64,000 nucleotides of DNA from an uncultured Deinococcales bacterium (GCA_964247135.1 CAXTTL010000001.1:1-64000), one strand, 5' to 3'; shown: positions 6,233 through 24,078, counted from the first letter of the stretch. Notes: generated by a model not told the origin, from the sequence alone. A program made the numbers and translations.

Positions 6233-6721
6233 ATGGTTGATTTTCAATTTTCCTCCCATGAAATACCCTTGAAATACCATGCTGCTAGCGTGCCTTTCAT
6301 GTTGACACAACAGCGGGAAGTAACGGTGACGGTTGATGCCCAAAAACATTGGTTTTCCCTCGAGTGCGGCAAGGTTCAGCAGCCTTTCCAGGGGTGGTTG
6401 GTTGGCACGGCTTCAAGCTCGAGTTTGCAGGGTGTCGCACGCATTGATTTTCGACTTCCAATGCAGCCAGCCAGCCACTTGACTTTGGAAGCCAGCATTG
6501 AACTGACCGTGTTCAATCAAACCGAGATGCACCACTGTTCGCTCGAGGAACTGCTTGAAGACATTCAACTTCACAAACGCGACGTGAGGTTGTGGTTGGT
6601 GGCGCTCCAAATTTTTCGAGCCATTCCCAAGCACAGTACGCCGGACTGGTTGCCACATTTTTTGGCAAATGCCGAACTTCATACGCTGCCAAAAACAGTT
6701 GGTGGAGGTGATGAGGCATGA
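6233..6721 (+). CDS. Hypothetical protein coupled to the downstream regulator
   Basis: ATGA overlap with 6718; possible leaderless -10 boxes before ATG 6233 (tatgct) or ATG 6299 (tagcgt). Confidence 0.6.
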   Translation: MVDFQFSSHEIPLKYHAASVPFMLTQQREVTVTVDAQKHWFSLECGKVQQPFQGWLVGTASSSSLQGVARIDFRLPMQPASHLTLEASIELTVFNQTEMHHCSLEELLEDIQLHKRDVRLWLVALQIFRAIPKHSTPDWLPHFLANAELHTLPKTVGGGDEA

Positions 6722-9700
6722 CGTTCCGTTTGCAATTGCTCGGTTTACCGAAACTCGTGGATCAACACATGGGTCTCGAGGCGTATTTGAGCACCAACAA
6801 ACCCACCCGCTTGCTGGCGTACATGGTGGCTCGGGTCGATTGGGAGGCGTTCAGCACCCTGGAATTTCTGGCGGATTTGGTGGGACAAACCGAAAAAACA
6901 AGTGTTGTGCGAACCATATTTCATCGCGCTTCCAAGGATTTAAGTGAATTGACCAGCGAGCAAAGAAGTCTGGTGGCAGGGTTGTTTTATAAAAATTTTG
7001 CTGGAAAGTACCGCAGCATCATCCAAAACGACGTTCAAGAGTTTCGTCAAGCGATCCAACAATCCAATTGGCAAAAAGCAGTCCGTTTGTACCACGGTGA
7101 GTTCTTGCAAGGCATGAAGCTGGAGGTTTCAAACACAAACGAAGCCGAAAGTGGTCTGCTCAACGCCCTTGCCAGCATTCGTCAAGAATTGTTTGAGTCT
7201 TGGTTAATAGCACGAATAAAGCTTGTTGAACGTTACCGCAAAGACCCCCTGGTGCCAGGGAGCGTGAAAGACGCCATTCAAGATTTAACTCAACTGCTGG
7301 CGGTCAGCAGTCGGGTTGAAAATCCAGAATTGGGCAAAAAATTGGTGGGTTTCGCCATTGATTTTGCGCTCTTTGCGGGAGAACCACACCTGGCTCGGAA
7401 ATGGTACGACGCCTATGTGGAGTCACTCCCTGAAGGTCTTGAACCCGATCTCGAGGTGACGAAGTTACTCGAGTCCATTTCATCGCTCGGAGATGTCAAC
7501 CACGGCGAAAAGATCAACACCCTCGGTTTTAAGGGACGCGGGAACGAGTACGAGCATTTGTGCGAATTGTTTGCCAACCCCAATTGTCGCTTGCTTTCCA
7601 TCCTTGGACCTGGCGGCATTGGCAAATCGTTGCTTGCCGCAAAATTGTACAACCATGAGGTTTTCAAACAAAAGCAGGTTTTAACATCAGCCTTGGGGCG
7701 TTTTCGTGACGGCTTAAACCACGTCTCAATGCGGGGGGTTCGTAGCGCCCAAGATGCGTTTCGGGCGATTGCCGCAGCCACAAAAATAACGTTTTGCCAA
7801 CCGAGCCTGCCACCCCAAACCGAACTTCTGCACGCCTTCAAAGGACAAGAGCGCCTGATTTTTCTGGACAACTTCGAGGACGCCCTGCCGTTTCCAGAAG
7901 TTCGAGCCTTCCTGAACGACGTGCTGTTTGAGTCACCAAAAATCAAATTCTTGGTGACCTCTCGAGAACGCCTCGAGCAACTGCATCCACCGTTGTTGAT
8001 TGGACTCGAAGAGCGTTACGAACTGGCAGGAATGAACCCTCAAGATGCCGAAATTTTGCTGGTGTCTTTGGCGGAACAAGAAAAACCTGGCAGCAGCAAA
8101 AACCTCGATGAACACGTGCTCCAGGCTTTTTACAACATGGTGAGGGGTTATCCATTGTTGATGGAATTGGCAGCCAAGAATTTTGGGGATCAAGCGCTGA
8201 ACGAGCACCTATCGGCATTGCTCGGACATCTTGACCACAAGGTTTTCACCCAAGCACAACAGGTGATTCTCGAGCAATCTGTCGCTCGGTTGCCAACCAA
8301 AACCCAACAGGCATTTTACCAGTTGAGCGTTTTCCCTTACCGGTTTACGCAAGATGCAGCCCAGAACGTCAGCGACTGTACCCTCGAACACCTGAACTTA
8401 CTGATTCGGCATTCACTGGTGCAGCGGCTCGAGCAGGGCGGGATGCTGCACCCAGTCTTGCGTGAACTGGCGTTTGCAACACTCGAGCCAACACAACAAA
8501 CAGCCTTGCAAGAAAAACACCTCGAGTATCACTTGAAGGCAGTGGCAAGTAACCAAGAGCAGATTCGGTGGATGCACGACTTGGCAAATTTACGCCTGGC
8601 GTGGGAAACACTGTTTAGGGCGGCAAATCCAAACCCAGATCAAATTGCTGAGCAAGCAAAACTCGCACAAAACCTTGGGTTGCTGGTTGAAACTCGAGAT
8701 TTGGCAGGATTCACCTTAAAACACGCCCTGACACCATCACATGCTCAAGCGACGGCTCATTTGATCTTGGCTCAACTTGAACGCCGTCAAAACATTGGGG
8801 CAGCCCAATTGCACCTCGAGCAGGTGGCAGTCTCGTGCAAGGCTTTGAATCTGATTGATCTCGAGCCAACACTTGCACTTGAGCAAGGACTCAATTTCTT
8901 AAATCATGATCTTGAAGCGGCTAAGAATGCCTTTGAGACAGCATTGCACGGTTTTGAAAAGCAACAACAGCCTTTGGGCGCGGCGAAATCCCACCGTCAA
9001 CTTGCCAGGGTCGCCAACGAGGCGCGACAATTTGAGGTCGCGCAACAACACCTAACAGCAGCCCTGACGAATTTACAACACCTGAACGAACCCCTTGAAC
9101 AAGCCAACGTCTTGACCGTGCTTGGCATTGTTTCAATTGAACAAAAAGATTATTTAAAAGCGAGGCAATTCATTCATGCGAGTACCGATTTGTACACCAG
9201 AATTGGTGTGCAATCCACGCAGCATTTTATTGCCCTCAACAACGGCACGCTTGGACATATCGAACGTGACCTTGGTAATTTTGAAGCATCCCTTGACCAT
9301 TACTTTGCGGCTCGAGAGGTTTTTAGCGGCACAAACGACCAGAAAAACCTGGGCAATGTGTACGCAGGCATTGGTGCGGTGCAAACCCAACAGCGCCATA
9401 TTCAAGAATCGCTTGAGAGTTTAGACACCGCCCTGACACTCTCAAGCGAACTTGGAGCGCCAGCGCGACAACTCGAGAACCTGTACTTGATAGCCGACGC
9501 GCTGCGTTTTATTGGTTCGCAAGATGGATTTCGGCGGTCTAAAGGTTTGGTGGATTGGTTGATTCAATCCCAGCACCCAGCCTTAGAACAACCCGTTTTT
9601 GAAAATGCCCAAAACTTACTTCTAAAACTCGAGATCAACGAGGTTTTTAGCTGGGGCAAGGAATTAAATGAAATTGTTCAAGCTGTCCTCGAGTACCTCA

Positions 9701-9723
9701 AAGCGATCTTGAGACAGCCGTGA
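6718..9723 (+). CDS. SARP/AfsR-like regulator: wHTH-BTAD + NB-ARC (STAND) ATPase + TPR
   Basis: FRLQLLGLP N-terminus, AVRLYHGEFLQG, Walker A GPGGIGKS, Walker B LIFLDNFE, LVTSRERL, GYPLLMELAA, C-terminal TPRs. Confidence 0.88.
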   Translation: MTFRLQLLGLPKLVDQHMGLEAYLSTNKPTRLLAYMVARVDWEAFSTLEFLADLVGQTEKTSVVRTIFHRASKDLSELTSEQRSLVAGLFYKNFAGKYRSIIQNDVQEFRQAIQQSNWQKAVRLYHGEFLQGMKLEVSNTNEAESGLLNALASIRQELFESWLIARIKLVERYRKDPLVPGSVKDAIQDLTQLLAVSSRVENPELGKKLVGFAIDFALFAGEPHLARKWYDAYVESLPEGLEPDLEVTKLLESISSLGDVNHGEKINTLGFKGRGNEYEHLCELFANPNCRLLSILGPGGIGKSLLAAKLYNHEVFKQKQVLTSALGRFRDGLNHVSMRGVRSAQDAFRAIAAATKITFCQPSLPPQTELLHAFKGQERLIFLDNFEDALPFPEVRAFLNDVLFESPKIKFLVTSRERLEQLHPPLLIGLEERYELAGMNPQDAEILLVSLAEQEKPGSSKNLDEHVLQAFYNMVRGYPLLMELAAKNFGDQALNEHLSALLGHLDHKVFTQAQQVILEQSVARLPTKTQQAFYQLSVFPYRFTQDAAQNVSDCTLEHLNLLIRHSLVQRLEQGGMLHPVLRELAFATLEPTQQTALQEKHLEYHLKAVASNQEQIRWMHDLANLRLAWETLFRAANPNPDQIAEQAKLAQNLGLLVETRDLAGFTLKHALTPSHAQATAHLILAQLERRQNIGAAQLHLEQVAVSCKALNLIDLEPTLALEQGLNFLNHDLEAAKNAFETALHGFEKQQQPLGAAKSHRQLARVANEARQFEVAQQHLTAALTNLQHLNEPLEQANVLTVLGIVSIEQKDYLKARQFIHASTDLYTRIGVQSTQHFIALNNGTLGHIERDLGNFEASLDHYFAAREVFSGTNDQKNLGNVYAGIGAVQTQQRHIQESLESLDTALTLSSELGAPARQLENLYLIADALRFIGSQDGFRRSKGLVDWLIQSQHPALEQPVFENAQNLLLKLEINEVFSWGKELNEIVQAVLEYLKAILRQP

Positions 9724-9762
9724 AACAAGAATCGAGTTCACTGAAATTCTAAGGAGATCACC

Positions 9763-12033
9763 ATGAAAAAAAATTGGTTCTTTGGATTGTACCTCGCTTT
9801 GGCAGTGACTTTCGTTGCTTGTCCCACAGCGCCATCTTTTGGCATTAATGGACATTTTTACCCCGACCCAACCACGTTTGAAGCTTGCGTTTCGGGCAAA
9901 GTGGAATTCAAACCCGATGCCAATGTGAATTTAACTGGTGTTGAAATCGAGTATGACTTTGGCGACAACACGGGTTTGCTTCGCACCAGCAACACCCGTA
10001 TCAGTCACGTCTACACCAAAGCAGGGACGTACACGCCAAACCTCAAATTCTTTCAGGGCAGCAGCGACACGGCAATGAGCGCCAACGTGAACTACCAGCA
10101 GATCGTCGTATTAAGTTCCAAAAATTGCCCAGCCAATACCACCATCAACAGCGTCTCAGACTACCTTGTCAAACTCGATAATTCGGTCGGTGATGTCTCG
10201 AGTGTCGCCAAAAAAATCGCAAGCGAAGTTGGTGGCAGTGTTCTTTTTGAATACCACAACGCCATCAAAGGTTTTGCGGTGCAAATGAACAACAAGCAAG
10301 CCGCCAGCGTCGGCATCAACAGCAACGTAGATCAAATGCTGGTGGATTTTGAGCTACAAAGCACCAGCACGCAAACCCCAGTCGAAACCTGGGGACTTGA
10401 TCGTATTGACCAACGTGACTTGCCGTTAAGTGGCTCGTACAGTTACGACCAGAACGGCAGCAACGTCAATTTTTACGGCATTGATACGGGCATCCTGACC
10501 AGTCACAACGAATTTACGAGCAGGATCGGCAATGGTTTTGACGCGGTAAACGATGGCAGGGGACTCGAGGATTGCAATGGTCATGGTTCGCACACCAGCG
10601 CTACCGTTGGGGGCACACAGTACGGCGTTGCCAAAAAAGTCATCATTCACCCCGTGCGCGTCTTGGATTGCAGTGGCAGCGGCACGCTCGGCGCGGTGAT
10701 CGCGGGTGTGGACTGGGTGGCAGGTAACGCGATAAAACCAGCCGTGGTCAACATGTCACTGGGTGGTCAAGGACATGCCCCGTTGCTCGAGCAAGCCATC
10801 ACAAACACTGTGGCAAAAGGCATCACCTTCGTGGTTGCGGCAGGCAATGGGCAGGGCGATGATGCTTGCAATTACACCCCAGCTCGTCTTGGTGAAAACG
10901 GTACGACCATCACCGTAGGCGCGACGGACAACACCGACAAGCTCGCCAGTTTTAGCAACATCGGCAAATGCGTCAACATCTTCGCGCCTGGGGTCAACAT
11001 CCTTTCTGCATGGAAGAACTCGAGCAGCGACGCGAAAAGCATCAGTGGCACGAGCATGGCTGCCCCGCATGTGGCAGGGGCAGCCGCGTTGTACCTCTCG
11101 AGCAACCCAACAGCCACCCCAGCCCAAGTGCGCGATGCGCTGATTGCCAATGCGACGAATGGCAAAGTGATTGGCTTGGACAGCCTCAGTCCAAACAAAC
11201 TCTTGTTTGTCAGCGCCTCGAGTAGCGGCGGCGGCAATGTGTCGGTGACCATTGCACCAGGCGATCAAACCATGCAGGTCGGCGAGAAACGCAGTTTTGT
11301 GGCAAACGTCACAGGCTCGAGCAATACTGATGTTTCTTGGGAATACGGCAGTGGCGGCAGCGACTCGAGCGGCAACAATTTAACTTACACCGCCCCGACC
11401 ACACCAGGCGTGTACTACCTGAAAGCCACCAGTGTGGCAGACCAAAGCAAATCCGCCACCGTTCACATCACCGTGCAAAGTGCAGTATCAGGGGTCGGCG
11501 TGAGCATTGACCCGCGAACCGCCATTTTGCAATCTGGCGCGAAACAAGCTTTTACCGCCACCGTCACTGGCTCGAGCAACACCAGCATTCTCTGGGAGTA
11601 CAGCGGTGGCGGCACAAGTGGCAGCGGCAACACCGTAAACTTTACCGCGCCGAATACACCAGGCGTCTACACCCTCAAAGCCACCAGCGTGGCAGACCGC
11701 ACGAAGAGTGCCAGCGCCATCATCACGGTCACGAGTGCCCCCGCAACCCAGGTTCAGGTCACGATCACCCCAAGCCTCGCCAACCTGCACGGCGGCGAAA
11801 AACAAACCTTTATCGCCACTGTTACAGGTACGAGCAACACTGATATCAGTTGGAACTTTGGAGGGTTGCCCGCAGGCACAAAAGTGGTTCAGACCAGAAG
11901 CGCCCGTCAAAGTAACACCACCGAATTTACGGTTGTTGCCCCCACAAACGTCACCGACAACTACCAACTGACTGCCATAAGCCTCGCAGACCCCAGCAAA
12001 ACGGCGCAAGCCCTGATTCACATTGCGCCTTAA
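9763..12033 (+). CDS. Lipoprotein S8 serine protease (aqualysin/proteinase K-like) with PKD, I9 and Ig-like repeats
   Basis: Lipobox FVAC; YDFGD PKD; WGLDRIDQ, IDTG, NGHGSH, GTSMAAPHVAG; about three Ig-like repeats. Confidence 0.93.
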   Translation: MKKNWFFGLYLALAVTFVACPTAPSFGINGHFYPDPTTFEACVSGKVEFKPDANVNLTGVEIEYDFGDNTGLLRTSNTRISHVYTKAGTYTPNLKFFQGSSDTAMSANVNYQQIVVLSSKNCPANTTINSVSDYLVKLDNSVGDVSSVAKKIASEVGGSVLFEYHNAIKGFAVQMNNKQAASVGINSNVDQMLVDFELQSTSTQTPVETWGLDRIDQRDLPLSGSYSYDQNGSNVNFYGIDTGILTSHNEFTSRIGNGFDAVNDGRGLEDCNGHGSHTSATVGGTQYGVAKKVIIHPVRVLDCSGSGTLGAVIAGVDWVAGNAIKPAVVNMSLGGQGHAPLLEQAITNTVAKGITFVVAAGNGQGDDACNYTPARLGENGTTITVGATDNTDKLASFSNIGKCVNIFAPGVNILSAWKNSSSDAKSISGTSMAAPHVAGAAALYLSSNPTATPAQVRDALIANATNGKVIGLDSLSPNKLLFVSASSSGGGNVSVTIAPGDQTMQVGEKRSFVANVTGSSNTDVSWEYGSGGSDSSGNNLTYTAPTTPGVYYLKATSVADQSKSATVHITVQSAVSGVGVSIDPRTAILQSGAKQAFTATVTGSSNTSILWEYSGGGTSGSGNTVNFTAPNTPGVYTLKATSVADRTKSASAIITVTSAPATQVQVTITPSLANLHGGEKQTFIATVTGTSNTDISWNFGGLPAGTKVVQTRSARQSNTTEFTVVAPTNVTDNYQLTAISLADPSKTAQALIHIAP

Positions 12034-12104
12034 AAAAATGACGCTCAAGAAACGCAGGAGAAAATCTCTCTGCGTTTCGACCTGTTCAAACTCGAGGAGG
12101 GATT

Positions 12105-15100
12105 ATGAACAACTGGCAGTTTTTTCGATTGATGACGGTGGCAACCACACTCGCGGTGGCATTGGTTGCCTGCCCACCGACCCAACCCCCACCTTCGGAA
12201 GCCACGCTGAAAGGCAGTTTCCGAGCAGATTTAACCAACGTGAAAATGTGCCAAACCATCACGATCACACCCACCATCGAATTTGGTAGTTTGCTCTCGA
12301 GCCAGGTGGATTACAGTTACGATTTTGGCGATGGCAGTCCCGTTGAACGCACCGCCAACTTTGAAATATCGCATACCTACCTCGAAGCCAAAAATTACGT
12401 GGTCACTGCCAAAGCATTTATAGACAAGAAAACCACGGCTGCGCTCGAGCAACCCTTGTACATCAATGTCACCACCGACGCACCATGCACTTACATTGGC
12501 TCGATCAAAACAACCAGTGGCATGTCACAACGCGCCAAAGCTCGAGCCGCCAGCGATGTTGTCACTGCATCGGGGGGCGAAGTCGTTTCGGTTTACACCG
12601 AGTTGTTCACGGGATTTTCAGCCAAACTCACACCCACCTCCGCCGCCAAAATACGTGCCGACTCGAGCGTTCAAGACCTGCAACTCAGCCTGAGTGGAAG
12701 CACCACAGGTACGCAATCCGACCCGCAAATCCCGTGGGGACTGGATCGAATAGACCAAACCAGCTTGCCGCTGGATCAATCTTTTTCGTACACCACCACC
12801 GGCGCCGGCGTGGACGTTTACATTGTGGATACGGGCGTGCGAAGCACCCACAACGAATTTGCTGGCGGACGGGTCAAAGCTGGTTACAGCGTTTTTAAGA
12901 ACGACCCAAGCACCGATGACTGCAACGGACACGGCACGCACGTCGCGGGCATTGTCGCAGGATCAAACTCTGGCGTGGCAAAAGGCGCGACCATCATCCC
13001 AGTGCGGGCGCTGGATTGCGACGGTCATTTTGACCACGACGAACAAATCCTCGATGCCCTCGAATGGATTTTGAAAAACCGCAACCCAAACCACCCGAGC
13101 ATCATCAACCTGAGTTTAAGCCGTCAAACTCAAACTTATGGGCAAAAACTTTTTATGGATGAAGCCATCAAAAACCTCGAGACCAAAAACATTTTTGTGA
13201 TTGTGTCCGCTGGAAATGACAGCAACAGTTCGTGCTTGTACAGCCCCGCAAACGTTGGTGGCAACAGTTCCGTGATTACGGTCGGAGCCGTCAACCGTTT
13301 TGATGAACGCATGGCAGCCAGCAACGAAGGTCCTTGCACCAACATCTTCGCACCAGGCGAGAAAATCAAAAGCGCAGGCATCAGCGATGACAACAGTTCT
13401 GCGACCTTAAGCGGTACGAGCATGGCAGCCCCACACGTGACCGGAGCGCTCGCGTTGTATCTCGAGGCAAACCCGAATGCCACACCTGCCAGTGCCAAAA
13501 AAGCCTTGCTTGATGCCGCCAGCAAAAACGTGGTCAAAAACATTCGCTTTGGAGCGCCCGCCAATTTATTGTTTGTTGCACCAATCAATGCCAGCACGAT
13601 CAGTGTGGACGTACAGCCACGTACCATCACGCTCAAACCTGGAGAAAGCCAAACGTTTACCGCCACCGTCACGGGAAACAGCGACACCAGTGTGACCTGG
13701 GAATACGGCAGCGGCATCAATGCGGGCAGTGGCAGCAGCCTAAAATTCACCGCACCAAACACCGCAGGCGTGTACACCCTGATCGCCAAAAGCCTTGCCG
13801 ACCCAAGCAAAAGCGCCAGCGCCACCATCACGGTCAGTGCTGCCACCTCGAGCATCAACGACGTGAGCATCAGCCCCAATGCCCCAACCGTGGCGGGGGC
13901 TGCGACCCAAGATTTCACCGCTACCGTGACAGGAACGGGTGCTTTTAGCAGTGGTGTGACCTGGGCAATCGAAACTGGTGGTGGAAGCCTGAGTGCAACA
14001 AAAGGTGCAACCGTGACCTTCACTGCGCCAAGCGTCAGTGGTACAACTCGAGTTCGGGCAACCAGCGTACAAGACCCGAGCAAAAGTGGCACGGTCAACA
14101 TCACCATCAATGCCGCAAGTGCTGGCGCTGGCGTGAGTGTTGCGCCGAACAGCGTGAATTTACAGATTGGGCAGAGTCAAAACTTCAGTGCCACCGTAAC
14201 AGGTTTGTCCAATACGGATGTGACTTGGAGCGTGACCCCAACAGCAGGTGTGACGTTCTCGAGCAACGCCAGCAGTGCCGTGTTTTCTGGGACTATTCCA
14301 GGGGCATACACGTTGACGGCAACCAGTATCAGCGACAACAGCAAAAAAGGGATTTCAACTATTAACGTTTTGCCTGATGCCATTGTGACCCTGACCCCGA
14401 ATGCAGCACAAACCATCAATGCGGGTGTGCCACTCGAGGTGAGCGCAGTGGTAACAAATGCGGTAAACACCAATGTCACTTGGAATGTCAGCCCAACCAC
14501 AGGAGCGAGTTTGACCCCAAATGGCAACACGCTTTCGTTCACGGGGAATCTGGCTGGAACGTACACTCTGACTGCGACGAGCACCGCAAATCCGATCAAA
14601 ACCACGACCTTGAGTATCACGGTTCAAAGAACAATCAGCATTAGTCCAGCAAATCTCGAGACTTTTGTGGGGATTGAGCATACTTTCACAGCAAAACTTT
14701 TGGGGTTCAGCAATAGCGATGTGCTTTGGGGTGTTTCACCGCTTGACGGCGCAAGTTTTATCATTAACGGTACAACAACCAAATTTACAGCAAACCAGAC
14801 AGGCAGTTGGACAGTAACAGCAACCAGCGTTCAAGACCCCAGCAAGCAGGCTGCGGTTGTTATTCAAGTCGGAAACGATATTGCTGTTCGACACACCATC
14901 AATAAAATAAATCGAAATGTGCCTAAAATGTTTGAAGCCACGATCAGACCATCTTTGGGCGCGGTAAATTGGTCTGTTTCGCCAACCTCAAATACAACAC
15001 TGATCCCAAATGGGAATCAAGTCGAATTTTCAGCTTCACAATACGGGACTTATACACTGAAAGCGACCAGTAGCTTAGATTCCTCAAAATCAGATTTATT

Positions 15101-16142
15101 TCCAGTATTTGTGACTAGCCTGCAACGTGTTGCTGGCGGCTACGACCATTCTCTGGTTATTAAATCTAATGGATCACTGTTCGCATTTGGAATCAATACT
15201 TATGGAGCAATAGGAGATGGAAGTACAACAAGTCGATCTATTCCTGTAGAAGTGATGCAGGATGTCATCAGTGTCAGTGCCGGAAATGATCATTCACTTG
15301 CACTTAAAGCAGACGGAACATTGTGGGCATGGGGTTGGAATCTTGGTGGTCAACTTGGAGATGGAACAATTACAACTCGACTAACACCTGTAAAAATTAT
15401 GACCAATGTAATAAGTATTAGTGCAGGTCGCTATTACTCATTAGCACTTAAAACAGACGGAACTTTATGGTCTTTTGGGTCAAATGATCGTGGACAGCTT
15501 GGCGTTGGTACATTGGTTGATAGTTCAGTCCCAAAACAAATTATGACAAACGTCGTCGCCATGAGCGCTGGTTCGTATCACGGGTTTGCTTTGAAGGCAG
15601 ATGGAAACCTATGGAGTTGGGGCTGGGGTGGGTATGGTCAACTTGGGACGTTATTGCACTACGATACGCAGAGTCCTCTTCAAGTGATGAGCGGGGTTTC
15701 AAGCATGAGTGGTGGCTATGGGCATTCGATGGTGATCAAACCCGATGGGATACTACTCGCATTTGGATTGGGTGCTGCGGGGCAACTTGGTACAGGATCA
15801 TCATCTGACTACAATGACCCATCGCAATCAATGGTCGGAGTCGCAGATGTTAGTGCAGGTGTTGCACATACAACAGTGCTGAGAATGGATGGTACAGTAT
15901 GGACTTTTGGATACAATTTAAATGGTCAGTTAGGTGATGGCACTGTAGACGGACGTTACACCCCACTTCAAGTCATGTCCGAAGCTATCAGTGTTGTAAG
16001 TGGAGGAGCACATACACTTGTTGTCAAACCCAATGGGACGTTGTGGACATTTGGACGAAATGCGAGTGGTCAGCTTGGTGATGGCACATTTATTCAAAGA
16101 AATTTGCCCATTCAAGTCATGACGGGAGTCATGCTTCCCTAA
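12105..16142 (+). CDS. Lipoprotein S8 serine protease with PKD, multiple Ig-like repeats and a C-terminal RCC1 beta-propeller
   Basis: Lipobox LVAC; VDTG, HGTHVAG, GTSMAAPHV; RCC1 repeats such as SAGNDHSLALKADGTLWAWGWNLGGQLGDG. Confidence 0.93.
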   Translation: MNNWQFFRLMTVATTLAVALVACPPTQPPPSEATLKGSFRADLTNVKMCQTITITPTIEFGSLLSSQVDYSYDFGDGSPVERTANFEISHTYLEAKNYVVTAKAFIDKKTTAALEQPLYINVTTDAPCTYIGSIKTTSGMSQRAKARAASDVVTASGGEVVSVYTELFTGFSAKLTPTSAAKIRADSSVQDLQLSLSGSTTGTQSDPQIPWGLDRIDQTSLPLDQSFSYTTTGAGVDVYIVDTGVRSTHNEFAGGRVKAGYSVFKNDPSTDDCNGHGTHVAGIVAGSNSGVAKGATIIPVRALDCDGHFDHDEQILDALEWILKNRNPNHPSIINLSLSRQTQTYGQKLFMDEAIKNLETKNIFVIVSAGNDSNSSCLYSPANVGGNSSVITVGAVNRFDERMAASNEGPCTNIFAPGEKIKSAGISDDNSSATLSGTSMAAPHVTGALALYLEANPNATPASAKKALLDAASKNVVKNIRFGAPANLLFVAPINASTISVDVQPRTITLKPGESQTFTATVTGNSDTSVTWEYGSGINAGSGSSLKFTAPNTAGVYTLIAKSLADPSKSASATITVSAATSSINDVSISPNAPTVAGAATQDFTATVTGTGAFSSGVTWAIETGGGSLSATKGATVTFTAPSVSGTTRVRATSVQDPSKSGTVNITINAASAGAGVSVAPNSVNLQIGQSQNFSATVTGLSNTDVTWSVTPTAGVTFSSNASSAVFSGTIPGAYTLTATSISDNSKKGISTINVLPDAIVTLTPNAAQTINAGVPLEVSAVVTNAVNTNVTWNVSPTTGASLTPNGNTLSFTGNLAGTYTLTATSTANPIKTTTLSITVQRTISISPANLETFVGIEHTFTAKLLGFSNSDVLWGVSPLDGASFIINGTTTKFTANQTGSWTVTATSVQDPSKQAAVVIQVGNDIAVRHTINKINRNVPKMFEATIRPSLGAVNWSVSPTSNTTLIPNGNQVEFSASQYGTYTLKATSSLDSSKSDLFPVFVTSLQRVAGGYDHSLVIKSNGSLFAFGINTYGAIGDGSTTSRSIPVEVMQDVISVSAGNDHSLALKADGTLWAWGWNLGGQLGDGTITTRLTPVKIMTNVISISAGRYYSLALKTDGTLWSFGSNDRGQLGVGTLVDSSVPKQIMTNVVAMSAGSYHGFALKADGNLWSWGWGGYGQLGTLLHYDTQSPLQVMSGVSSMSGGYGHSMVIKPDGILLAFGLGAAGQLGTGSSSDYNDPSQSMVGVADVSAGVAHTTVLRMDGTVWTFGYNLNGQLGDGTVDGRYTPLQVMSEAISVVSGGAHTLVVKPNGTLWTFGRNASGQLGDGTFIQRNLPIQVMTGVMLP

Positions 16143-16424
16143 ACCAATCCTCGAGCCTCCCTCAACCCTTACAAACCCAAACGCCTTTCAATCCTCGAGC
16201 CTCAAAAACTCGAGGATTATTTTGCTTATGAAATACGTTTGAAACACGCCAGCGATACCCTTTGGTCACTCGAGGTTGTTCCCTCGCTCGAGCGGAAAGG
16301 ACAGGTAACATTTGGACTTTTTTTAATGGCGCAAAGTCGGTGATGTTCGGTTTCAAAAATTTAGTGAGCGCAGCGAACTCTTGGCGGACTACGCTGCGCC
16401 CTCGCCCCCGAATCAGGAGACTGT

Positions 16425-16577
16425 ATGAATTATACTGCTCGAAAGTTGGCTCGTGTGAGCCTTGCGCTGGCGTTGTTTTTGTTTGGTGTGGTTGCGGTTC
16501 AACGTGTGGCTTTGGTGCATTCCGCACCTGCGGTGTTGCTGGCAGATGATGGTTCAACAAAACCAACAGGTGGCTGA
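16425..16577 (+). CDS. Small secreted propeptide 1 (50 aa; absent from the ORF track): MNYTARKLARVSLALALFLFGVVAVQRVALVHSAPAVLLADDGSTKPTGG
   Basis: RBS aggaga; basic N-region plus hydrophobic core; intact paralog of 16744-16899. Confidence 0.85.
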   Translation: MNYTARKLARVSLALALFLFGVVAVQRVALVHSAPAVLLADDGSTKPTGG

Positions 16578-16645
16578 AATCAAAACTGGGTGTTGAAGAT
16601 GACTAACTATCCATCTGATTACTCATCTTGCGTTAGAATGTGTAG

Positions 16646-16724
16646 GTGGGGAAAACTCAAACTGTCCAGGATCAACAGTTCGGTTATGTGCTAGTTTTTC
16701 GACATGTAATCTGACGTTGCCCTG
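16646..16724 (+). pseudogene. Decayed 5' stub of the TPR regulator gene (duplicate of 16961-17038)
   Basis: Same upstream cgttagaatgtg; reads LKLSRINSSVMC*FFDM*SDVAL versus intact LKLTEVSGTAVRLFQNAQPEAAL, with a 1-nt insertion and two stops. Confidence 0.7.
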
Positions 16725-16743
16725 CCCCAAACAAGGAGATCGT

Positions 16744-16899
16744 ATGAATAATACTGCTCGAAAGTTGGTTCGTGTAAGCCTTGCGTTGGCTTTATTCTTG
16801 TTTGGTGTGATAGCTGTGCAACACTCAGTATTGGTGCATTCCGCGCCTGCGGTGTTGCTTGCAGATGATGGTGCAAAACCAGCAGGTGGTGGTGGCTAA
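16744..16899 (+). CDS. Small secreted propeptide 2 (51 aa): MNNTARKLVRVSLALALFLFGVIAVQHSVLVHSAPAVLLADDGAKPAGGGG
   Basis: RBS aggaga; signal-peptide-like; paralog of 16425-16577. Confidence 0.87.
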   Translation: MNNTARKLVRVSLALALFLFGVIAVQHSVLVHSAPAVLLADDGAKPAGGGG

Positions 16900-16908
16900 A
16901 CTCGAGTT

Positions 16909-16935
16909 GGGGTGGTGAATAACCACCCCTTTTTG
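16909..16935 (+). terminator. Intrinsic terminator after peptide 2
   Basis: ggggtggt-gaata-accacccc followed by a T-run. Confidence 0.75.
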
Positions 16936-16947
16936 AATATCTCACGT

Positions 16948-16953
16948 TAGAAT
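16948..16953 (+). promoter_or_regulatory. -10 box for a leaderless TPR regulator transcript
   Basis: TAGAAT 7 nt upstream of GTG 16961, no SD; conserved in the duplicate copy at about 16634. Confidence 0.6.
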
Positions 16954-16960
16954 GTGAATC

Positions 16961-18673
16961 GTGGGGGAACTCAAACTAACCGAGGTCAGCGGGACGGCAG
17001 TGCGTTTGTTTCAGAACGCGCAGCCCGAAGCTGCCCTCGAATGGTTTCAACGTGCTGCCAAGCTCGCGCAGAAATTCGCGGATTGGCAGCATTTGCGTGA
17101 AGCCTGGGATTCGATTCCCGAAACACAACGCCGTTCGAGCATGGATTGGGCGTGTGCGTATGCTAGGGTGCTGGCTGCCTGTGAAGAAGCAGACGCTTTA
17201 CTTGTTTGGACGGAAATAACAATCCCATTGTTCCCAAACGATTCTCGAGTGGATTTGTTGCTCGAAAAAAGTTATGCCTTGCTCATGCTCCGACGTTTCT
17301 CGGATGTATGTGCAATTCTCGAGCCACTTGTTGGGCTTCAAGGGAATGCCTTGGTGATGCAGCAAAAACGACTTCTGTGGGCAAAGTCTCAACTGCATTT
17401 GGATTGGTCGCTCGAGTTGGTGCAACTTCGGGCGGTGCTGTTCGATTGGCAAAACAACCAAATACCACAAGGCGTTCATGTCACGGGTTGGGCGATTGGT
17501 TTGGCGTTTATTGATGCTGGGTCTTGCTGTTACCAAGAGTTACGTGACACCGACGCTCGAGCCTGCTGGCGTGACGCCTTGCCGCTCGTTCAACATGACG
17601 CATATTCCGCTGCATGGTGTCATTACAATTTTGGCATCAGTTACCTCCGAGAGTTGCAACTCGAGAATGCCGAACATCACTTGCGGTTCGCACATCAACT
17701 GGTGTTGGATCACAAGAAAATCAAATCGCTTCAAACCCTGACGCTTCGAGGATTGGCGGCGTTGTACCGCGTTCATGGAGAATGGGATTTGGCACTTCAG
17801 AATTACCACGATGCGTTTAAAAAGGCTTCCGACGATGCCGACAGGGGTCAAGCCCTTCTTGGTCTTGGAAGGAATCTACGGCTCTCACAGCGCCCCCTGG
17901 AAGCCAAGCAACCGCTCTACCAATTCTTGGGTTTGAACATCAAAAATCCTTCCGAAGCCCACCTCGAGTTGGCAGCCGTGTACTTGCGGCTTGGCGATGT
18001 CATCGAAGCCAAACGCTGCCTTGCGCAAATCACCATGGTTTTTGGCGCTGACCGCGATCTGCTGCGAATCTTAAACGCCGAAATCGCCCGCCTCGAAGGA
18101 AATCCAAACGAAGTCCAACAACAACTTGAAGGTCTGAGCATGACCTCACGTTTGGCGCGGGAAGAAGCCACGCAATTTCCAGAACTCTGGTTGTTCTGCA
18201 AGTTGCTCTTCATGCCAGTCCCAGAAATCCTGCCCTTGCTGGGCAGAACCCAAGTTCGGGTTTTTGCTTGCGGGGTGCTGCGCGTCCTGGTCAACGGACG
18301 CGACATCAGCATCAACCCAAAAGCCAAGCACGCCCAACTGCTGGTGCGCCTGCTCGAGACTCCACAGCGCTCCGAAAGCATTGAACGCCTGATTGACACG
18401 CTTTACGACGACATGCCAAACAAAAAGAACAAAGACAACCTCGACAAACTGATGCTCGAGTTGCACGACAGACTCGGCTACAAAGGCAGCGTTCAAAAAC
18501 GCAAAGGGCAACTCTTGCTCGACCCGAACGCGATCTGGTGGTACGACGCAACCGAAGTCCGAAACCGTCGCCGCAAAGCCAATGCTTTTCTCGAGGGTGT
18601 CTACTCCGATTGGGTGCAAGAGATTGAACACGAATTGCTGGCGCTCGAGCCGTACCAAAGCGTCCTGAATTAA
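16961..18673 (+). CDS. TPR-repeat transcriptional regulator with C-terminal SARP-like winged helix / partial BTAD
   Basis: Helical TPR-like repeats (AWCHYNFGISY, LRGLAALYRVHGEWDLALQNY, ALLGLGRNLR); C-terminal VRVFACGVLRVLVNG...LLVRLL...LIDTLY...WWYDA...FLEGVYSDWV. Confidence 0.8.
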   Translation: MGELKLTEVSGTAVRLFQNAQPEAALEWFQRAAKLAQKFADWQHLREAWDSIPETQRRSSMDWACAYARVLAACEEADALLVWTEITIPLFPNDSRVDLLLEKSYALLMLRRFSDVCAILEPLVGLQGNALVMQQKRLLWAKSQLHLDWSLELVQLRAVLFDWQNNQIPQGVHVTGWAIGLAFIDAGSCCYQELRDTDARACWRDALPLVQHDAYSAAWCHYNFGISYLRELQLENAEHHLRFAHQLVLDHKKIKSLQTLTLRGLAALYRVHGEWDLALQNYHDAFKKASDDADRGQALLGLGRNLRLSQRPLEAKQPLYQFLGLNIKNPSEAHLELAAVYLRLGDVIEAKRCLAQITMVFGADRDLLRILNAEIARLEGNPNEVQQQLEGLSMTSRLAREEATQFPELWLFCKLLFMPVPEILPLLGRTQVRVFACGVLRVLVNGRDISINPKAKHAQLLVRLLETPQRSESIERLIDTLYDDMPNKKNKDNLDKLMLELHDRLGYKGSVQKRKGQLLLDPNAIWWYDATEVRNRRRKANAFLEGVYSDWVQEIEHELLALEPYQSVLN

Positions 18674-18919
18674 CGCGCAATAAACCTGAGCGAAGTACGC
18701 GCAGTGAAGCACGGCTCGAAGATTTCTCGAGCCGCGTTGCTAACTTTGCTCATGATTGACATTCTTGCTGGCTTTCAAACACGGCATTGGAACACCCGTG
18801 AAAGAGCTTTGAAATACGCCAATCGTATGGTCTGACCACTCGAGCAGAAATCGTAAATCTCGAGCGCAGGTGCTGGTATTTCGGTTCTCGCCTCTAGTGG
18901 AAATGAATCAGGAGAAGTC

Positions 18920-19408
18920 ATGAAAAAAATCTGGGGGATTTGGTTGCTCGTTTTGGTTTTGCTCAGCTCATGCGGGAACTTGACGTCGCAAACGGGTGGC
19001 GCAGGGAAAATCACCTTCAGCAACGCGACGGGTTTCAATGGCATTCTAACCGATTTGACTCTGGCAAGTACCAGCCGCCCCATAGGAGGTTTGTACGGCG
19101 GCAATTACGACGCTCAAAAAGGCGCACTTCGAGAACTGATTCTTGCCTTACCAGATCAGCAAGAAGGAGCGGTCTATACGATCACACCAGACAGTGCAGA
19201 TGGAGTGGTGTACACCGAAAATCCTGTACCGCCAACAACGATCAAAAAATGGCAATCAACCAGTGGGAGCATCAAAATTGTTCAATCCAACGCAAGCACG
19301 ATAAGCGTGGAACTGATAAACGTTACCTTGGTTCCAATACCTGATACCAACAATGCTGGTGTCGGCAGTGTCGTTATCAACGGCATGTTGAGTGGGAAAA
19401 CAAAATAG
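18920..19408 (+). CDS. Hypothetical lipoprotein
   Basis: RBS aggag; lipobox LSSC. Confidence 0.8.
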   Translation: MKKIWGIWLLVLVLLSSCGNLTSQTGGAGKITFSNATGFNGILTDLTLASTSRPIGGLYGGNYDAQKGALRELILALPDQQEGAVYTITPDSADGVVYTENPVPPTTIKKWQSTSGSIKIVQSNASTISVELINVTLVPIPDTNNAGVGSVVINGMLSGKTK

Positions 19409-19491
19409 TTTTCAGAACAGATTTTGTCTCGAGAATCAAAATCTATTTGCTTCCATACTGTCCAATTCAATTGCATTTTTAGGAGGAATGT

Positions 19492-20775
19492 ATGAAAAAA
19501 CTGTTGTCCGCGTGTTTGGTTGCCTTGATTGGTTTGGTGGGTGTGACTGCCCAAAACCAGTCGCCGTCGTTTCAATTCGTGCCTGGTGAAGCATTGGATG
19601 TCACTATAGGATTAGATGGTGTTGTATGGATTATTGGTACGACACCGTTAAAAGAAGGTGGGTATGGAATCTTCAAAAAAACACTTTCTGGTTGGCAAGA
19701 GCTTAATCTCGATGCTGTGGTTAGGAGTAGATACGGGGAATCCGGGGCTGTTAAAGTTGCAATAGACCCCGACGGAAACCCTTGGATCGTAACTGCAAGT
19801 AGTCATATTTATCGATGGGTTAGAAATGCTTGGGAGTTTTTGGGCGGTGATTTCAAAGACGTTGGGATTGGTGCAAATGGAGCTGTATGGGCAATAGGAA
19901 CAAACGCAGAACCATATACTTGGGTTGGTTCTCAGTGGGTACATTACTTTTTTGATAAATTACCTTGCGCTGCTAATAATGGTTATGGCGACTATTGCCA
20001 ACGAGTTTCAGTTGATTCAAATGGCGATCTTTACATTCTTGATGACAAGCGAGAAATTTACAAAAGCACGGGAATGCTTGACTATTTTGCTGCTATTCAA
20101 CGCGGTTCAAAGGACGTCAGTTTGGCATGGACAAGACTACCAGGCTTATTTACAGATATTAGTGTAGGAGCAGCAGACAACAGCGTGTTTGCCGTTAGTT
20201 CAGTCCCTTACCGTGGTGGTGGTCAAGTCTTCAAATGGGCAGCTACAGACTGGAATCCACTGCCCGTGGGTGGAACTGATGTTGCGGTTGACATCAGAGG
20301 ATTTCCGTGGCTTGTCAACTCGAGTTACAAAATCCTGACCGACTCGAGCAATTCCGAACCCGCCACGCTGAAAGACACGATTCTGGCGGTCAATGCGCCG
20401 TGGTTGCAAAACAAAAATGCTTTGGCTTTAAGTGACGCAAAATTCAGTCCACAATTTGGCGGCACGGTTTCGTTCTCGCTCGATTTCACGAACCAGAATT
20501 TAACCCCCATCGCGTTGCAGTACAACCTTTCGGACCTCGTGAAGCTCGAGAGTAATGGCAAAACCTACACCATTGGTTTTGGGCAGAACAGCAAATGCAG
20601 TTCGTTCTCCGAAACCGTCGCGCCGGGGGCAACGGTGCGTTTGAAATGCACGTCTGAATCTGAAGGTGCGGCGGTGTTTGGCATTGCCGACACGAGCATC
20701 AAAGAATTTGTCGTCAGTATTGCGGCGCTTGGCGGAATTCAAAATGCGCGTTGGCTTGTACCAGTCAAACGCTAA
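19492..20775 (+). CDS. Secreted tectonin-like beta-propeller (lectin-like) protein, paralog 1
   Basis: Signal peptide; repeats DVTIGLDGVVWII, VAIDPDGNPWIV, DVGIGANGAVWAI. Confidence 0.8.
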   Translation: MKKLLSACLVALIGLVGVTAQNQSPSFQFVPGEALDVTIGLDGVVWIIGTTPLKEGGYGIFKKTLSGWQELNLDAVVRSRYGESGAVKVAIDPDGNPWIVTASSHIYRWVRNAWEFLGGDFKDVGIGANGAVWAIGTNAEPYTWVGSQWVHYFFDKLPCAANNGYGDYCQRVSVDSNGDLYILDDKREIYKSTGMLDYFAAIQRGSKDVSLAWTRLPGLFTDISVGAADNSVFAVSSVPYRGGGQVFKWAATDWNPLPVGGTDVAVDIRGFPWLVNSSYKILTDSSNSEPATLKDTILAVNAPWLQNKNALALSDAKFSPQFGGTVSFSLDFTNQNLTPIALQYNLSDLVKLESNGKTYTIGFGQNSKCSSFSETVAPGATVRLKCTSESEGAAVFGIADTSIKEFVVSIAALGGIQNARWLVPVKR

Positions 20776-20795
20776 CTCGAGATTGGAGGAAATCA

Positions 20796-22118
20796 ATGCG
20801 AAATGTACTTTCTGCTTGTTTGGTAATTGCTATTGGATTGTTTGCTGTCACCGCCCAAACCCAAACGCCGCAACCGTATAAGGTTGTTCCAGGCGATGCA
20901 ACGGATGTTGCTGTGGGAAGTGATGGCAGTGTATGGATTGTTGGAGCGAAAACGATCACAACAGCGGAGCGAGACGGATATGAAGTCTTGAAGAAAGCTG
21001 GCACAGGATGGGAAAATATTTCTCTGACAGGAATTGGCAACCACGACGGTATGTTTTATGGCGACAAAACTGACTACAAAGGTGGTGCATTTAAAATTGC
21101 CATCGACTTACAGGGTAATCCTTGGATCATCAATGGGCATCGAAATGTGTACCGTCGTTTGAAAAACACTTGGCAAATCATTAAGGATTCTCGCGCCGAA
21201 GACATTGCAATTGGCAAAACGGGGGCTGTTTGGATTGTTACACCAAATAACGATGTTGCCACATGGGATGGGTCGAAATTCGTCAAGTACATTGGGAAAG
21301 ACTTGACATGTGGATTGTCCTCACATTTTGCTTACAACAGTTGCTCAAGAATTACTGTCGATTCGTTTGGGAACCCTTGGGTAATTGATGATAAATCGGT
21401 GTTGTACCGCAGCACTGACATGAAAGGGTTTTTCACCGCGTTGCAACGTGGCGATGCCGAACCCACGGCTGGCTGGGAAACCATGCCTGGAAAGTTTTCT
21501 GACGTTGGCGCTGGAGCAGATGGAAGCGTCTTCGCCGTGACCACCACCCCGTACCAAGACGGTGGTCAGGTGAGCGTGTGGGACGCGGAGGCATGGAAGC
21601 CGCTTGAAGTTGGTGGAACGAATATTGCCGCTGACAGCAAAGGCTTCCCGTGGATTGTCAACTCGAGCAACAAAATCCTTACCGATGCTCGCAACACCGA
21701 ACCGCTCACCCTGGCTGGAGCCGCACTGAAAGTTAACGATACCTGGCGTCAAGAGAAGTCCGCCTTGACCCTGAAGGATGTCAAGTTTTCCAAAAACCTT
21801 GGTGGAACAATTTCTTTCACGCTCGAGTTTTTGAATCAAGACCCTTCATTGGTCACATTCAAGTACAACCTGACCGATCTGGTCACGTTGGTTTCAAACA
21901 ACACTTCTTATCACCCAATGTTTGATCAAAAAACCAAGTGTGCCACGAACAGTGCCAGCGTTGCTTCAGGCGAAATCCTTCGATTGACGTGCCTTAACGA
22001 CGCTGGTGGAATGGTGAATTTCAAGCTTGCCGATGCCACGATTAAACAATTCGTGGTCACCGTTTCCAGCCTAGTCAGCATTCAAAACGCACGTTGGCTC
22101 GTGCCAGTCAAACGCTAA
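20796..22118 (+). CDS. Secreted tectonin-like protein, paralog 2
   Basis: RBS ggagga; same repeat pattern and shared C-terminus IQNARWLVPVKR. Confidence 0.8.
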   Translation: MRNVLSACLVIAIGLFAVTAQTQTPQPYKVVPGDATDVAVGSDGSVWIVGAKTITTAERDGYEVLKKAGTGWENISLTGIGNHDGMFYGDKTDYKGGAFKIAIDLQGNPWIINGHRNVYRRLKNTWQIIKDSRAEDIAIGKTGAVWIVTPNNDVATWDGSKFVKYIGKDLTCGLSSHFAYNSCSRITVDSFGNPWVIDDKSVLYRSTDMKGFFTALQRGDAEPTAGWETMPGKFSDVGAGADGSVFAVTTTPYQDGGQVSVWDAEAWKPLEVGGTNIAADSKGFPWIVNSSNKILTDARNTEPLTLAGAALKVNDTWRQEKSALTLKDVKFSKNLGGTISFTLEFLNQDPSLVTFKYNLTDLVTLVSNNTSYHPMFDQKTKCATNSASVASGEILRLTCLNDAGGMVNFKLADATIKQFVVTVSSLVSIQNARWLVPVKR

Positions 22119-22187
22119 CTCGATCATAGGAATTTGCTCTGTTGGTCAGGTTTTCTGATTCGATTTAAGAAGTCTTTGGGGGTTGTG

Positions 22188-23288: not shown

Positions 23289-23395
23289 AACGAGCAGACG
23301 TTGGCTCGTGCCTGTCAAAGGCAAAATCAGTGGCACTTCAAAACCGTCGTTTGTCATTCCCCTTTTACCATTTTGCTCGAGTTAAGGAGATCACC

Positions 23396-23884: not shown

Positions 23885-24078
23885 AACACCTGAATCTCGA
23901 GATGCTTTTGTTTTAATGTTGGATTTTGGATGTAACGCGGATGTAGTAGATCGAAATAAGTGCCTTCAAGTCAGGTTATCTCGAGACTCGTTGGAACGAT
24001 TAAACATACTGTCTGGAACGATACGGATGTAGATTCTTATGTGCTGACTTATCCCCATGTTTTTACTGTTGGGACTAC

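Follow-up and report, generated by a model that had tools for sequence, protein, structure and literature searches.

Short exported-type peptides paired with a TPR/winged-helix regulator in Deinococcota: a candidate RRNPP-like module frequently found beside CRISPR-Cas operons

In a 64,000-nt stretch of the genome of an uncultured Deinococcales bacterium (GCA_964247135.1, CAXTTL010000001.1:1-64000; hereafter the window, at its full length), we found two short open reading frames (sORFs) that would encode exported pre-peptides, followed on the same strand by the gene of a 570-aa regulator with tetratricopeptide repeats (TPR) and a putative C-terminal winged helix-turn-helix (wHTH). In two sets of homologous loci taken together, 57 of 61 regulator loci from about 50 Deinococcota genomes carry such an upstream sORF. 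We read the sORFs as exported pre-peptides which, together with the TPR/wHTH protein, would form a Deinococcota peptide-regulator module working as an RRNPP-like circuit and ancestrally tied to CRISPR-Cas, a reading to which we assign a probability of roughly one half. Its more limited component, that an exported propeptide and the adjacent TPR/wHTH regulator are predicted to belong together as a genetic module, is well supported by the comparisons below. The features of the module in the window are the following.

16415..16420, + strand: Shine-Dalgarno-like AGGAGA, 4 nt upstream of the ATG of sORF1
16425..16577, + strand: sORF1, predicted 50-aa pre-peptide (peptide profile E 1.2e-14)
16625..16670, + strand: remnant of the regulator promoter and first codons, with TAGAAT at 16634-39 (tandem-duplication alignment)
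16734..16739, + strand: Shine-Dalgarno-like AGGAGA, 4 nt upstream of the ATG of sORF2
16744..16899, + strand: sORF2, predicted 51-aa pre-peptide counted from its ATG, paralog of sORF1, tail LLADDGAKPAGGGG (listing of open reading frames, peptide profile)
16909..16934, + strand: intrinsic-terminator-like hairpin and T-run, between sORF2 and the regulator
16948..16953, + strand: -10-like TAGAAT ending 7 nt upstream of the regulator GTG, as in a leaderless-type promoter
16961..18673, + strand: 570-aa regulator, N-terminal TPR region and C-terminal winged helix (Pfam, PADLOC models)
18242..18670, + strand: C-terminal ~143 residues of the regulator, putative OmpR/SARP-type winged helix and first BTAD-like helices (weak, consistent scores)

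The pairing of sORF and regulator was followed in two sets of loci. The first contains 32 loci from 41 related genomes, 4 of them with less than 170 nt of upstream sequence and the other 28 with at least 299 nt; the second contains 33 loci from genomes that all lie outside the first set (the 13 best new loci and 20 taken, one per genome, from among the next-ranked matches). Among the 28 first-set loci with sufficient upstream sequence, a same-strand sORF of 38-64 aa was detected by script in 25, and two more added by eye (L013 and L026) bring this to 27; in the second set the script found one in 29 of 33, and an sORF placed 490 nt upstream in L068 makes it 30. These counts come from custom open reading frame (ORF) scripts and from loci picked off ranked lists, and related genomes are not independent samples. 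In each first-set sORF found by script the N-terminus is hydrophobic, and the tail fits either [LVA][AV][DGE][DE]..K..GG or ..DD..PCxxC. With a profile hidden Markov model (HMM) built from these 27 peptides, the window's genome (134,247 six-frame ORFs) yielded only four hits at E < 1e-8, which adjoin three of the four regulator paralogs, and the next hit had E 0.015; the model had been trained on these four as well, so what counts is that no others appeared. When the same profile was applied to the second set, the upstream sORFs were the top 23 of 3,282 ORFs, 18 of them at E <= 0.01. The sORF-regulator pairing is not a matter of chance. An initial annotation of the window had suggested looking for an upstream signal-peptide sORF with an 'LAD...GG' tail next to receptor homologs and for co-variation between the two partners; the first was found at the 57 of 61 loci given above, and for the second, tail class clusters on the regulator tree and conservation along the peptide is highest in the tail.

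The arrangement around the pair also recurs. Of the 23 first-set loci that were folded, 18 have a stable hairpin after the sORF stop (z < -2 against shuffles), and in 11 of 23 the regulator start has a TAnnnT box no more than 18 nt away; the usual layout would therefore be a peptide gene with its own Shine-Dalgarno site, a terminator, and a separately and often leaderlessly expressed regulator.

Several measures bear on the coding status of the sORFs. The ratio of non-synonymous to synonymous change (pN/pS) was 0.19-0.31 in all 6 of the close pairs chosen, with 0.19 for sORF1 against sORF2, and in a six-frame version of the test the sORF frame had the lowest ratio and was free of stops in 4/4 pairs. 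Antisense ORFs of 134 and 84 aa overlap the window sORFs, and the frame of the window's overlapping antisense ORF gave a pN/pS of 1.47. A Shine-Dalgarno core (GGAG, GAGG or AGGA) was found at -18 to -4 of 43 of 56 family sORFs, compared with 232 of 2000 random positions in the same loci. By these sequence measures the sORFs are real genes under purifying selection. Export features, which we scored with a custom heuristic, were present in 29/29 aligned peptides, each of which has an n-region with a net charge of +1 to +4, an uncharged stretch of 11-22 residues and at least one -3/-1 site. The n-regions are alike across distant members (MNRTAK, MQRTAK, MQSTVK). Of ten exact peptide sequences searched for, five were found in public protein sets, one of them as the 'hypothetical protein' WP_155915763.1 of Meiothermus ruber. 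In the Pfam and NCBIfam scans the peptides received no family assignment and no modification-enzyme gene was seen nearby.

The tails are the part of the peptides with the clearest signature. In 61 of 67 pairs of 50-99% identity, which are not independent of one another, the last 12 residues were more conserved than the rest, with means of 0.73 and 0.53, respectively. Tails are either Gly-rich (ADDPKTGAGGG, AGDDPGGGTGG) or contain Cys (VDDPKPCASC, PKCCAGG), and when these types were placed on a quick maximum-likelihood tree of 29 regulators they required 3 changes, against 8.2 for shuffled labels, with only 0-1 of 500 shuffles as low. The nearest relative of the window regulator on that tree, on a long branch, is the regulator of L031, whose peptide has the tail DDGGSGTKPTGG, close to that of sORF1. 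A tail of the APAVLLADDGSTKPTGG type is the candidate cognate peptide of the window regulator.

For the window itself, the initial annotation had described two ORFs of 50 and 51 aa with AGGAGA ribosome-binding sites, signal-like N-termini, a conserved spacer and differing tails, followed by a terminator, and all of these were present as placed. In sORF1 an n-region of charge +3 precedes an uncharged h-region of 15 residues, cleavage is possible at VHS|AP, and the tail is LLADDGSTKPTGG; the frame of sORF2 can be extended upstream to a TTG at 16717. The two products are 82% identical (84% in a comparison that gave E 3.2e-19) and have in common the spacer ...VHSAPAVLLADDG, with tails that differ (STKPTGG in sORF1 vs AKPAGGGG in sORF2). 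Beginning about 9 nt past the sORF2 stop, the hairpin has the stem GGGGTGGT/ACCACCCC, 8 bp with 6 G-C, and is followed by TTTTT, the two together spanning 16909-16929. The sORFs form a tandem duplication of ~319 nt (16380-16720 vs 16700-17040, mean column identity 83%), of which the duplicated unit also took in the regulator promoter and its first ~40 nt, and the remnant of these at 16625-16670 may now serve as a promoter for sORF2. The alignment indicates that the window peptide gene was recently duplicated and that its tails then diverged faster than the signal parts. At L011 (contig C41 of genome G008), two peptide genes also stand before one regulator, and these are mutually very different (...FMQVDDNPKPCSVC and ...FADDPKPCPACRR), whereas the window pair is a recent duplicate.

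The regulator ORF begins at the first GTG past an in-frame TGA, and since TAGAAT ends 7 nt before this GTG, a leaderless start, as claimed in the initial annotation together with the 570-aa ORF that we confirm, is plausible. A -10 element adjacent to ORFs is common in Deinococcus-Thermus according to the abstract of PMC12340547. In Pfam, the regulator matches TPR families only (TPR_12, E 1.4e-8; TPR_2, E 2.3e-6), with no family in its last ~140 residues, no HTH at the N-terminus, no BTAD and no NTPase domain; NCBIfam returned nothing above its cut-offs, and in the sequence as read by eye there was no signal, transmembrane or hydrophobic segment. The alignment of regulators has invariant residues, R270 and R377 among them. 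For the putative winged-helix domain (residues ~428-570) we made a profile covering the final ~143 residues in 25 of 29 aligned homologs, excluding the near-duplicates L009, L012 and L019 and the short C-terminus of L031. This profile weakly matches winged helices of the OmpR/SARP type (CadC 5ju7, E 1.3e-3; EmbR 2fez, 7.8e-3; AfsR, 0.13), Trans_reg_C was detected in 8 of the 25 members with a best E of 1.5e-3, all under the curated cut-off, and hhalign aligned the C-terminus with the wHTH and BTAD N-terminus of an AfsR-like protein of the same genome (probability 69%, E 4.4e-5, 128 columns), where only the first BTAD helices align. The combination of TPR and a C-terminal SARP-like wHTH, already proposed in the initial annotation, therefore stands on Pfam for its TPR part and on weak scores for its SARP-like part, and is a reasonable assignment that is not firmly proven. 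Many regulators of the window's family end in Leu-Asn (...SVLN, ...RTLN, ...LELN, ...RDLN; window 18665-18670 and loci L004-L030).

The regulator family is widespread in the phylum and has been catalogued. Two PADLOC models match the window regulator, PDLC01171 'TPR repeats containing protein' at E 1.5e-82 (residues 21-560, model positions 5-502 of 504) and, over its full length, PDLC01092 'C3a198' at E 8.1e-52; in the table of Shah et al. 2018, as available in PMC6546367, C3a198 is cluster 198, with 3 members, the example Mrub_1490, type III-B and the description 'TPR protein'. In an exhaustive search of 1.84 billion protein representatives, the number of clusters with homologs fell from 204 with a threshold of E <= 1e-3 to 152 with E <= 1e-10 and to 90 with E <= 1e-30, the full-length homologs being mostly of about 510-630 aa. 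Among 10 of the 150 listed that were examined, the named members are proteins of Calidithermus timidus, Meiothermus sp. QL-1 and Deinococcus piscis, annotated as TPR, HTH-domain-containing or hypothetical proteins. Profile matches at E <= 1e-10 occur in 187 of 364 Deinococcota genomes, many of them to generic TPR proteins. A hand count, by family code, of genomes with a best E <= 1e-60 gave 17/18 plus the window's genome for the window's own family (f1), 57/125 for the Deinococcus-like f3, 29/68 for the Meiothermus/Calidithermus-like f5, and 0/128, 0/23 and 0/1 for f2, f4 and f6. The window's genome has four paralogs (the window copy and three others), and relatives have up to six. In Thermus-like genomes (n=5) the homologs are shorter and divergent (profile positions ~108-519), and neither a WYL nor a cas gene lies within 1.5 kb of these five loci. 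Two of them, L119 and L122, are followed by a convergent ORF with a signal peptide and the ending ...PLSDEVKGLG.. (E 0.0037 and 1.8), possibly a displaced, divergent peptide partner.

The genomic context connects the family with CRISPR-Cas, which is the main setting of the family and was missed in the initial annotation. In 29 of 33 loci of the second set and 13 of 32 of the first, the next gene downstream of the TPR regulator encodes a WYL/WCX regulator, identified with Pfam. We surveyed ~10 kb of downstream sequence for cas genes at 20 of the 29 second-set loci that have WYL, with a Pfam check of one of them, and found type I-E cas genes in 11, type I-C in 2, a cas3 fragment in 1 and none in 6; among the 11 type I-E loci, one has only cas3, at a contig end, and one is without a cas3 hit. 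In six large first-set loci with WYL the operon was of type I-C in four and of type I-E in two, so that cas genes are found downstream in 19 of the 26 loci with enough sequence in total. In the window's own genome, the contig C9 paralog (L046 360-11513, minus strand) has sORF, TPR regulator, WYL, cas3, cas5, cas8c, cas7, cas1 and cas2 in this order on one strand; this type I-C operon looks complete (cas8c/Csd1), and its sORF ends ...ILADDPKTGAGGG. At L041 (10929-12815, contig C82 of genome G012), a Cas10/Cmr2 gene of type III directly follows the regulator, which matches the type III-B association listed for C3a198 in the available part of PMC6546367. Control of CRISPR-Cas immunity was probably the ancestral role, since most members adjoin a WYL/WCX gene and a cas operon of type I-E or I-C.

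The window copy has a different neighbourhood. No WYL homolog was found in 15461-20170 and no cas gene is its neighbour; on the tree it sits within a clade of f1 members only, none of whose copies has a downstream WYL gene, which places it, as judged from the tree and neighbouring genes, in a family-specific expansion that lost WYL and cas. Its neighbours on the same strand are the following.

6718..9723, + strand: 1001-aa STAND-type protein (AAA_16 and TPR; Pfam) with a weakly AfsR-like N-terminus, recurrent near non-CRISPR paralogs
9763..16142, + strand: two multi-domain subtilases of 756 and 1345 aa (Peptidase_S8 with PKD, Big_2 and RCC1; Pfam), directly upstream
18920..22118, + strand: 162-aa lipoprotein-like protein and two tectonin-domain proteins, downstream on the same strand

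Parts of this neighbourhood recur elsewhere. The sister locus L124 has a co-oriented STAND homolog upstream (tblastn E 4.5e-12), and BTAD+AAA_16+TPR proteins lie near five other paralog loci (L037, L041, L045, L047 and L048); no STAND protein occurs in the examined sequence of L035, L042 and L044. At L045 the order STAND, S8, sORF, regulator is repeated (Peptidase_S8 E 1.1e-25), and when the whole window S8 proteins were compared by tblastn with L045, L124 and L125, it was L045 that matched (E 8.4e-10); the window S8 catalytic region, searched by tblastn against loci up to L097, had no hit at 1e-8. By Pfam, L045 alone has an S8 neighbour, and L037 and L048 have Big_5 proteins nearby. The window copy probably controls the flanking subtilase, tectonin or STAND genes, with the subtilases as candidate targets or candidate processing enzymes and the lipoprotein-like and tectonin proteins as candidate targets. 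The initial annotation had likewise proposed the flanking proteases and lectins as targets, for which the support is indirect, namely the repetition of STAND, subtilase, sORF and regulator at L045; it had also suggested a mobile element, and this location is not shown, as GC is lower at 4-24 kb but the window has no tRNA genes, and an integrase was not looked for. GC is 0.47-0.50 at 4001-10000 and 14001-24000 of the window, compared with 0.52-0.58 elsewhere, and these low-GC stretches suggest an island.

As a mechanism, we hypothesise that each sORF would be translated from its own Shine-Dalgarno site and that transcription of sORF2 would end at the terminator, in line with the sequence features observed. 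From the n/h/c-region pattern we would expect Sec to export the pre-peptide and signal peptidase to cleave it, for instance behind VHS. Extracellular trimming would then reduce it to a short C-terminal fragment carrying the conserved acidic-Pro/Gly-Lys...Gly-Gly tail, a step proposed because the tail is the best-conserved part, and the subtilases could alternatively have the role of processing the propeptide. Secreted subtilases process Phr peptides in Bacillus. At sufficient concentration, the peptide would be re-imported by an oligopeptide permease and would bind the TPR region of the leaderlessly expressed regulator, as we propose on account of the RRNPP analogy and of co-diversification; the genome has 26 SBP_bac_5 genes, a non-specific indication of general import capacity. 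Binding would alter DNA binding by the C-terminal SARP/OmpR-type winged helix and thereby the transcription of neighbouring genes.

Several observations weigh against an RRNPP-like circuit. No dedicated exporter or permease gene lies within the module, and the wHTH assignment has weak scores, with E of about 1e-3 to 1e-5. At L080 and L085 there is no sORF, and a thioredoxin gene lies directly upstream instead; L071 retains the tail alone, without a signal-like N-terminus; at L006, the contig C70 paralog, the one candidate is convergent and lies downstream (...AYADPTLPCVKCRR); and no upstream sORF was found at the five Thermus-like homologs. The clustering of tail types on the tree is partly expected from shared ancestry alone. 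Finally, the tails of the two window copies are less alike than their signal parts (identity 0.67 vs 0.82), which fits either diversification or relaxed constraint.

Four other explanations of the same data can be considered. It is conceivable, but unlikely, that the regulator controls the peptide gene and its neighbours, and that the peptide is an exported effector (antimicrobial or bacteriocin-like, an envelope or surface factor, or a CxxC metal-binding peptide) or the signal of some other receptor. Conserved adjacency fits co-regulation and a ligand-receptor pair equally well, and the module carries no permease gene; TPR regions are, however, peptide-binding modules, the regulator has no other evident sensor domain, and tail type follows regulator clade. 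Tails of the Cys type (PCxxC, PKCC) bring to mind peptides that are modified or active in redox or metal chemistry, yet the peptides have neither a family assignment nor an adjacent modification enzyme, and the presence of the same peptide type before cas operons, protease and STAND genes suits a signal rather than a context-specific effector.

We consider it rather improbable that the regulator responds within the cell to a pre-peptide that is unprocessed and membrane-anchored, being tethered or titrated by the cytoplasmic N-terminus of that pre-peptide or by the chain before export, and so reports secretion or envelope stress or phage interference and not density. A possible signal-peptidase site is present in 29/29 aligned peptides, and the best-conserved part is the C-terminal tail (61/67 pairs), which would be outside the cell for an N-in anchor as for a cleaved signal peptide; this argues against such an anchor even though the short n-region is unusually similar across distant members, a dedicated transporter is absent from the module, and the link to immunity genes would suit a sensor of infection or stress. 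A further explanation, in which the sORF is a leader peptide whose translation controls the downstream hairpin and read-through into the regulator (attenuation), its product having no function, could account for the stable hairpin ~9 nt past the sORF2 stop and for the hairpins after the sORF in 18/23 loci. We regard it as very doubtful, given the purifying selection at the amino-acid level, the signal-like design and a tail kept across more than 50 genomes, the regulator's own -10 box adjoining its start, and the loci in which the sORF is 182-490 nt away from the regulator or convergent to it. Lastly, that the sORFs are chance open frames or part of a non-coding RNA or repeat element, as their shortness, the overlapping antisense ORFs of 134 and 84 aa and the 5/10 exact peptide sequences missing from public protein sets might suggest, has a negligible probability in view of the six-frame pN/pS that favours the sORF frame (1.47 in the antisense frame), the high specificity of the HMM, the enriched Shine-Dalgarno sites and the lack of any Rfam match, Rfam having zero family matches in 15800-19200.

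The reading of an exported peptide sensed by its TPR/wHTH regulator can be compared with systems already described. The RRNPP quorum-sensing systems of Bacillota (Rap-Phr, NprR-NprX, PlcR-PapR, AimR-AimP) consist of an exported propeptide gene and an adjacent TPR-type receptor (PMC10075063, PMC9765709, in the portions available). The module resembles them in being a two-gene unit with a small exported-propeptide gene beside a predicted cytoplasmic TPR-type receptor (an adjacent gene of 10-100 aa is present), in that the C-terminal part of the propeptide is its conserved, specific part, and in having several paralogous copies per genome, placed next to the genes that they would control. NprR-NprX, for example, adjoins a protease gene. 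In contrast to RRNPP, the peptide gene is upstream and not downstream, a putative C-terminal OmpR/SARP-type winged helix stands in place of an N-terminal XRE-type HTH, and there is no Rap-type helical bundle. The receptor has 570 aa (530-600 in the family), against 250-500 aa in the RRNPP_detector definition, and the organisms are Deinococcota, whereas RRNPP surveys scanned only Firmicutes and viruses (both from the available portion of PMC10075063). In a profile search of PDB sequences, RapH (3q15) was matched at E 2.9e-7 but ranked below dozens of generic and designed TPR proteins. Since the N-terminal HTH and Rap domains are absent, the length is above the range, the phylum is another one and homology is unproven, the module would work like RRNPP but falls outside the RRNPP class. 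The RRNPP analogue with inverted architecture of the initial annotation is thus upheld as a genetic module, by the 57/61 pairing, the conservation of the tails and the distribution of tail classes on the tree.

The regulator and C3a198 of Shah et al. 2018 belong to the same protein family, as the full-length match to both PADLOC models indicates; in the available part of PMC6546367, C3a198 is a catalogue line without a DNA-binding domain, peptide gene or function, and the window copy differs in having no cas or WYL neighbour, the cas adjacency being held by the paralog on contig C9 and by the other loci counted among the 19/26. With SARP/AfsR proteins the regulator shares TPR repeats and a C-terminal domain that aligns with the wHTH and the start of the BTAD of the same-genome AfsR-like protein, and the feature neighbours of the homolog P0010 are BTAD regulators, which we take as a lead only. 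The domain order is inverted, however, with TPR first and wHTH last, and there is neither a full BTAD nor an NTPase. We know of no SARP with a paired secreted peptide. A likeness to WYL defence regulators lies in the position of the WYL/WCX gene, which in most loci follows the TPR regulator and precedes cas3. Cell-density signalling is known to regulate cas genes through the acyl-homoserine lactone systems of Serratia and Pseudomonas (PMC10013973, available portion), but there the signals are acyl-homoserine lactones with LuxR-type receptors encoded elsewhere, whereas here the candidate signal genes lie within the cas locus. In the available text of that review of CRISPR regulation, TPR, WYL, Thermus and Deinococcus have 0 occurrences each and peptide quorum sensing does not appear, the 2 occurrences of 'peptide' both concerning a phage-derived Cas9 inhibitor.

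Some further observations concern the window and its genome. CTCGAG/AATCCTCGAG repeats occur 5' of sORF1 and 3' of the regulator, and an operator role for them was considered and dropped, because CTCGAG is not specific with 33,925 counts in the genome. These copies in 5.09 Mb (6.7/kb; 376 in the window) compare with a naive expectation of ~1,240, and other palindromic hexamers are nearly absent from the genome (GAGCTC 0, CGTACG 5, CCGCGG 11, GCATGC 17, CGGCCG 3, AGGCCT 4), a pattern that looks like a HIP1-like hyper-abundant palindrome together with strong palindrome avoidance. Downstream of the module, the tectonin paralogs of 427 and 455 aa stand back to back at 19492-22118, their ORFs overlapping by 25 nt, and a CsgG-like ORF comes next. 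At 4886-9723, a CHAT-domain protease gene (E 7.2e-70), a 162-aa ORF without a family and the 1001-aa STAND gene lie on one strand and resemble a conflict- or defence-type gene set. At 2523-4491, a single-stranded DNA-binding protein (SSB) with two OB-fold domains (SSB_1 and SSB) is followed by a DUF932 gene; SSBs with two OB folds are typical of Deinococcota, and SSB and DUF932 genes are often found on integrative or plasmid-like elements.

As to novelty, the available portions of the literature on RRNPP, on Deinococcota quorum sensing and pheromones and on CRISPR-linked genes (including 10.1101/270033) contained no peptide partner and no Deinococcota peptide signalling, with the reservation that supplementary tables might list the genes; the peptide partner is likewise unmentioned in the accessible text of PMC10075063, PMC9765709 and PMC10013973, and our literature search found no further paper on Mrub_1490. 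The regulator family is catalogued only as C3a198, and the peptide partner is, as far as this search goes, undescribed.

A wider reading, which we put forward more tentatively, is that peptide signalling is Deinococcota-wide and arose independently, as the first RRNPP-like logic outside Bacillota. In it, an exported peptide with an acidic-Pro-Lys...Gly-Gly or Cys-containing tail would be sensed by a cytoplasmic TPR receptor whose C-terminus is a SARP-type winged helix. Ancestrally it would switch on type I-E/I-C (sometimes III-B) CRISPR-Cas via WYL, and in the window's lineage, with its up to six paralogs per genome, copies with pherotype-like tails would now govern secreted proteases, lectin-like proteins and STAND genes. 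If this were true, immunity would be tuned by cell-cell communication encoded inside the cas locus itself, and the fresh peptide duplicate of the window would be a snapshot of a new signal specificity arising. Peptide signalling through cytoplasmic TPR receptors is usually treated as a hallmark of Bacillota and their phages, and a Deinococcota analogue with a different DNA-binding domain and gene order would mean that the design evolved more than once, besides offering a concrete, testable case of cell-cell signalling in Deinococcota. Culturable carriers exist (Meiothermus ruber, Calidithermus timidus and Deinococcus species), so the idea can be tested at the bench. As the module and WYL head type I cas operons in most members, they provide a route to how CRISPR-Cas expression is tuned there, and would, if the reading is correct, give a function to C3a198, a catalogued but unexplained CRISPR-linked gene.

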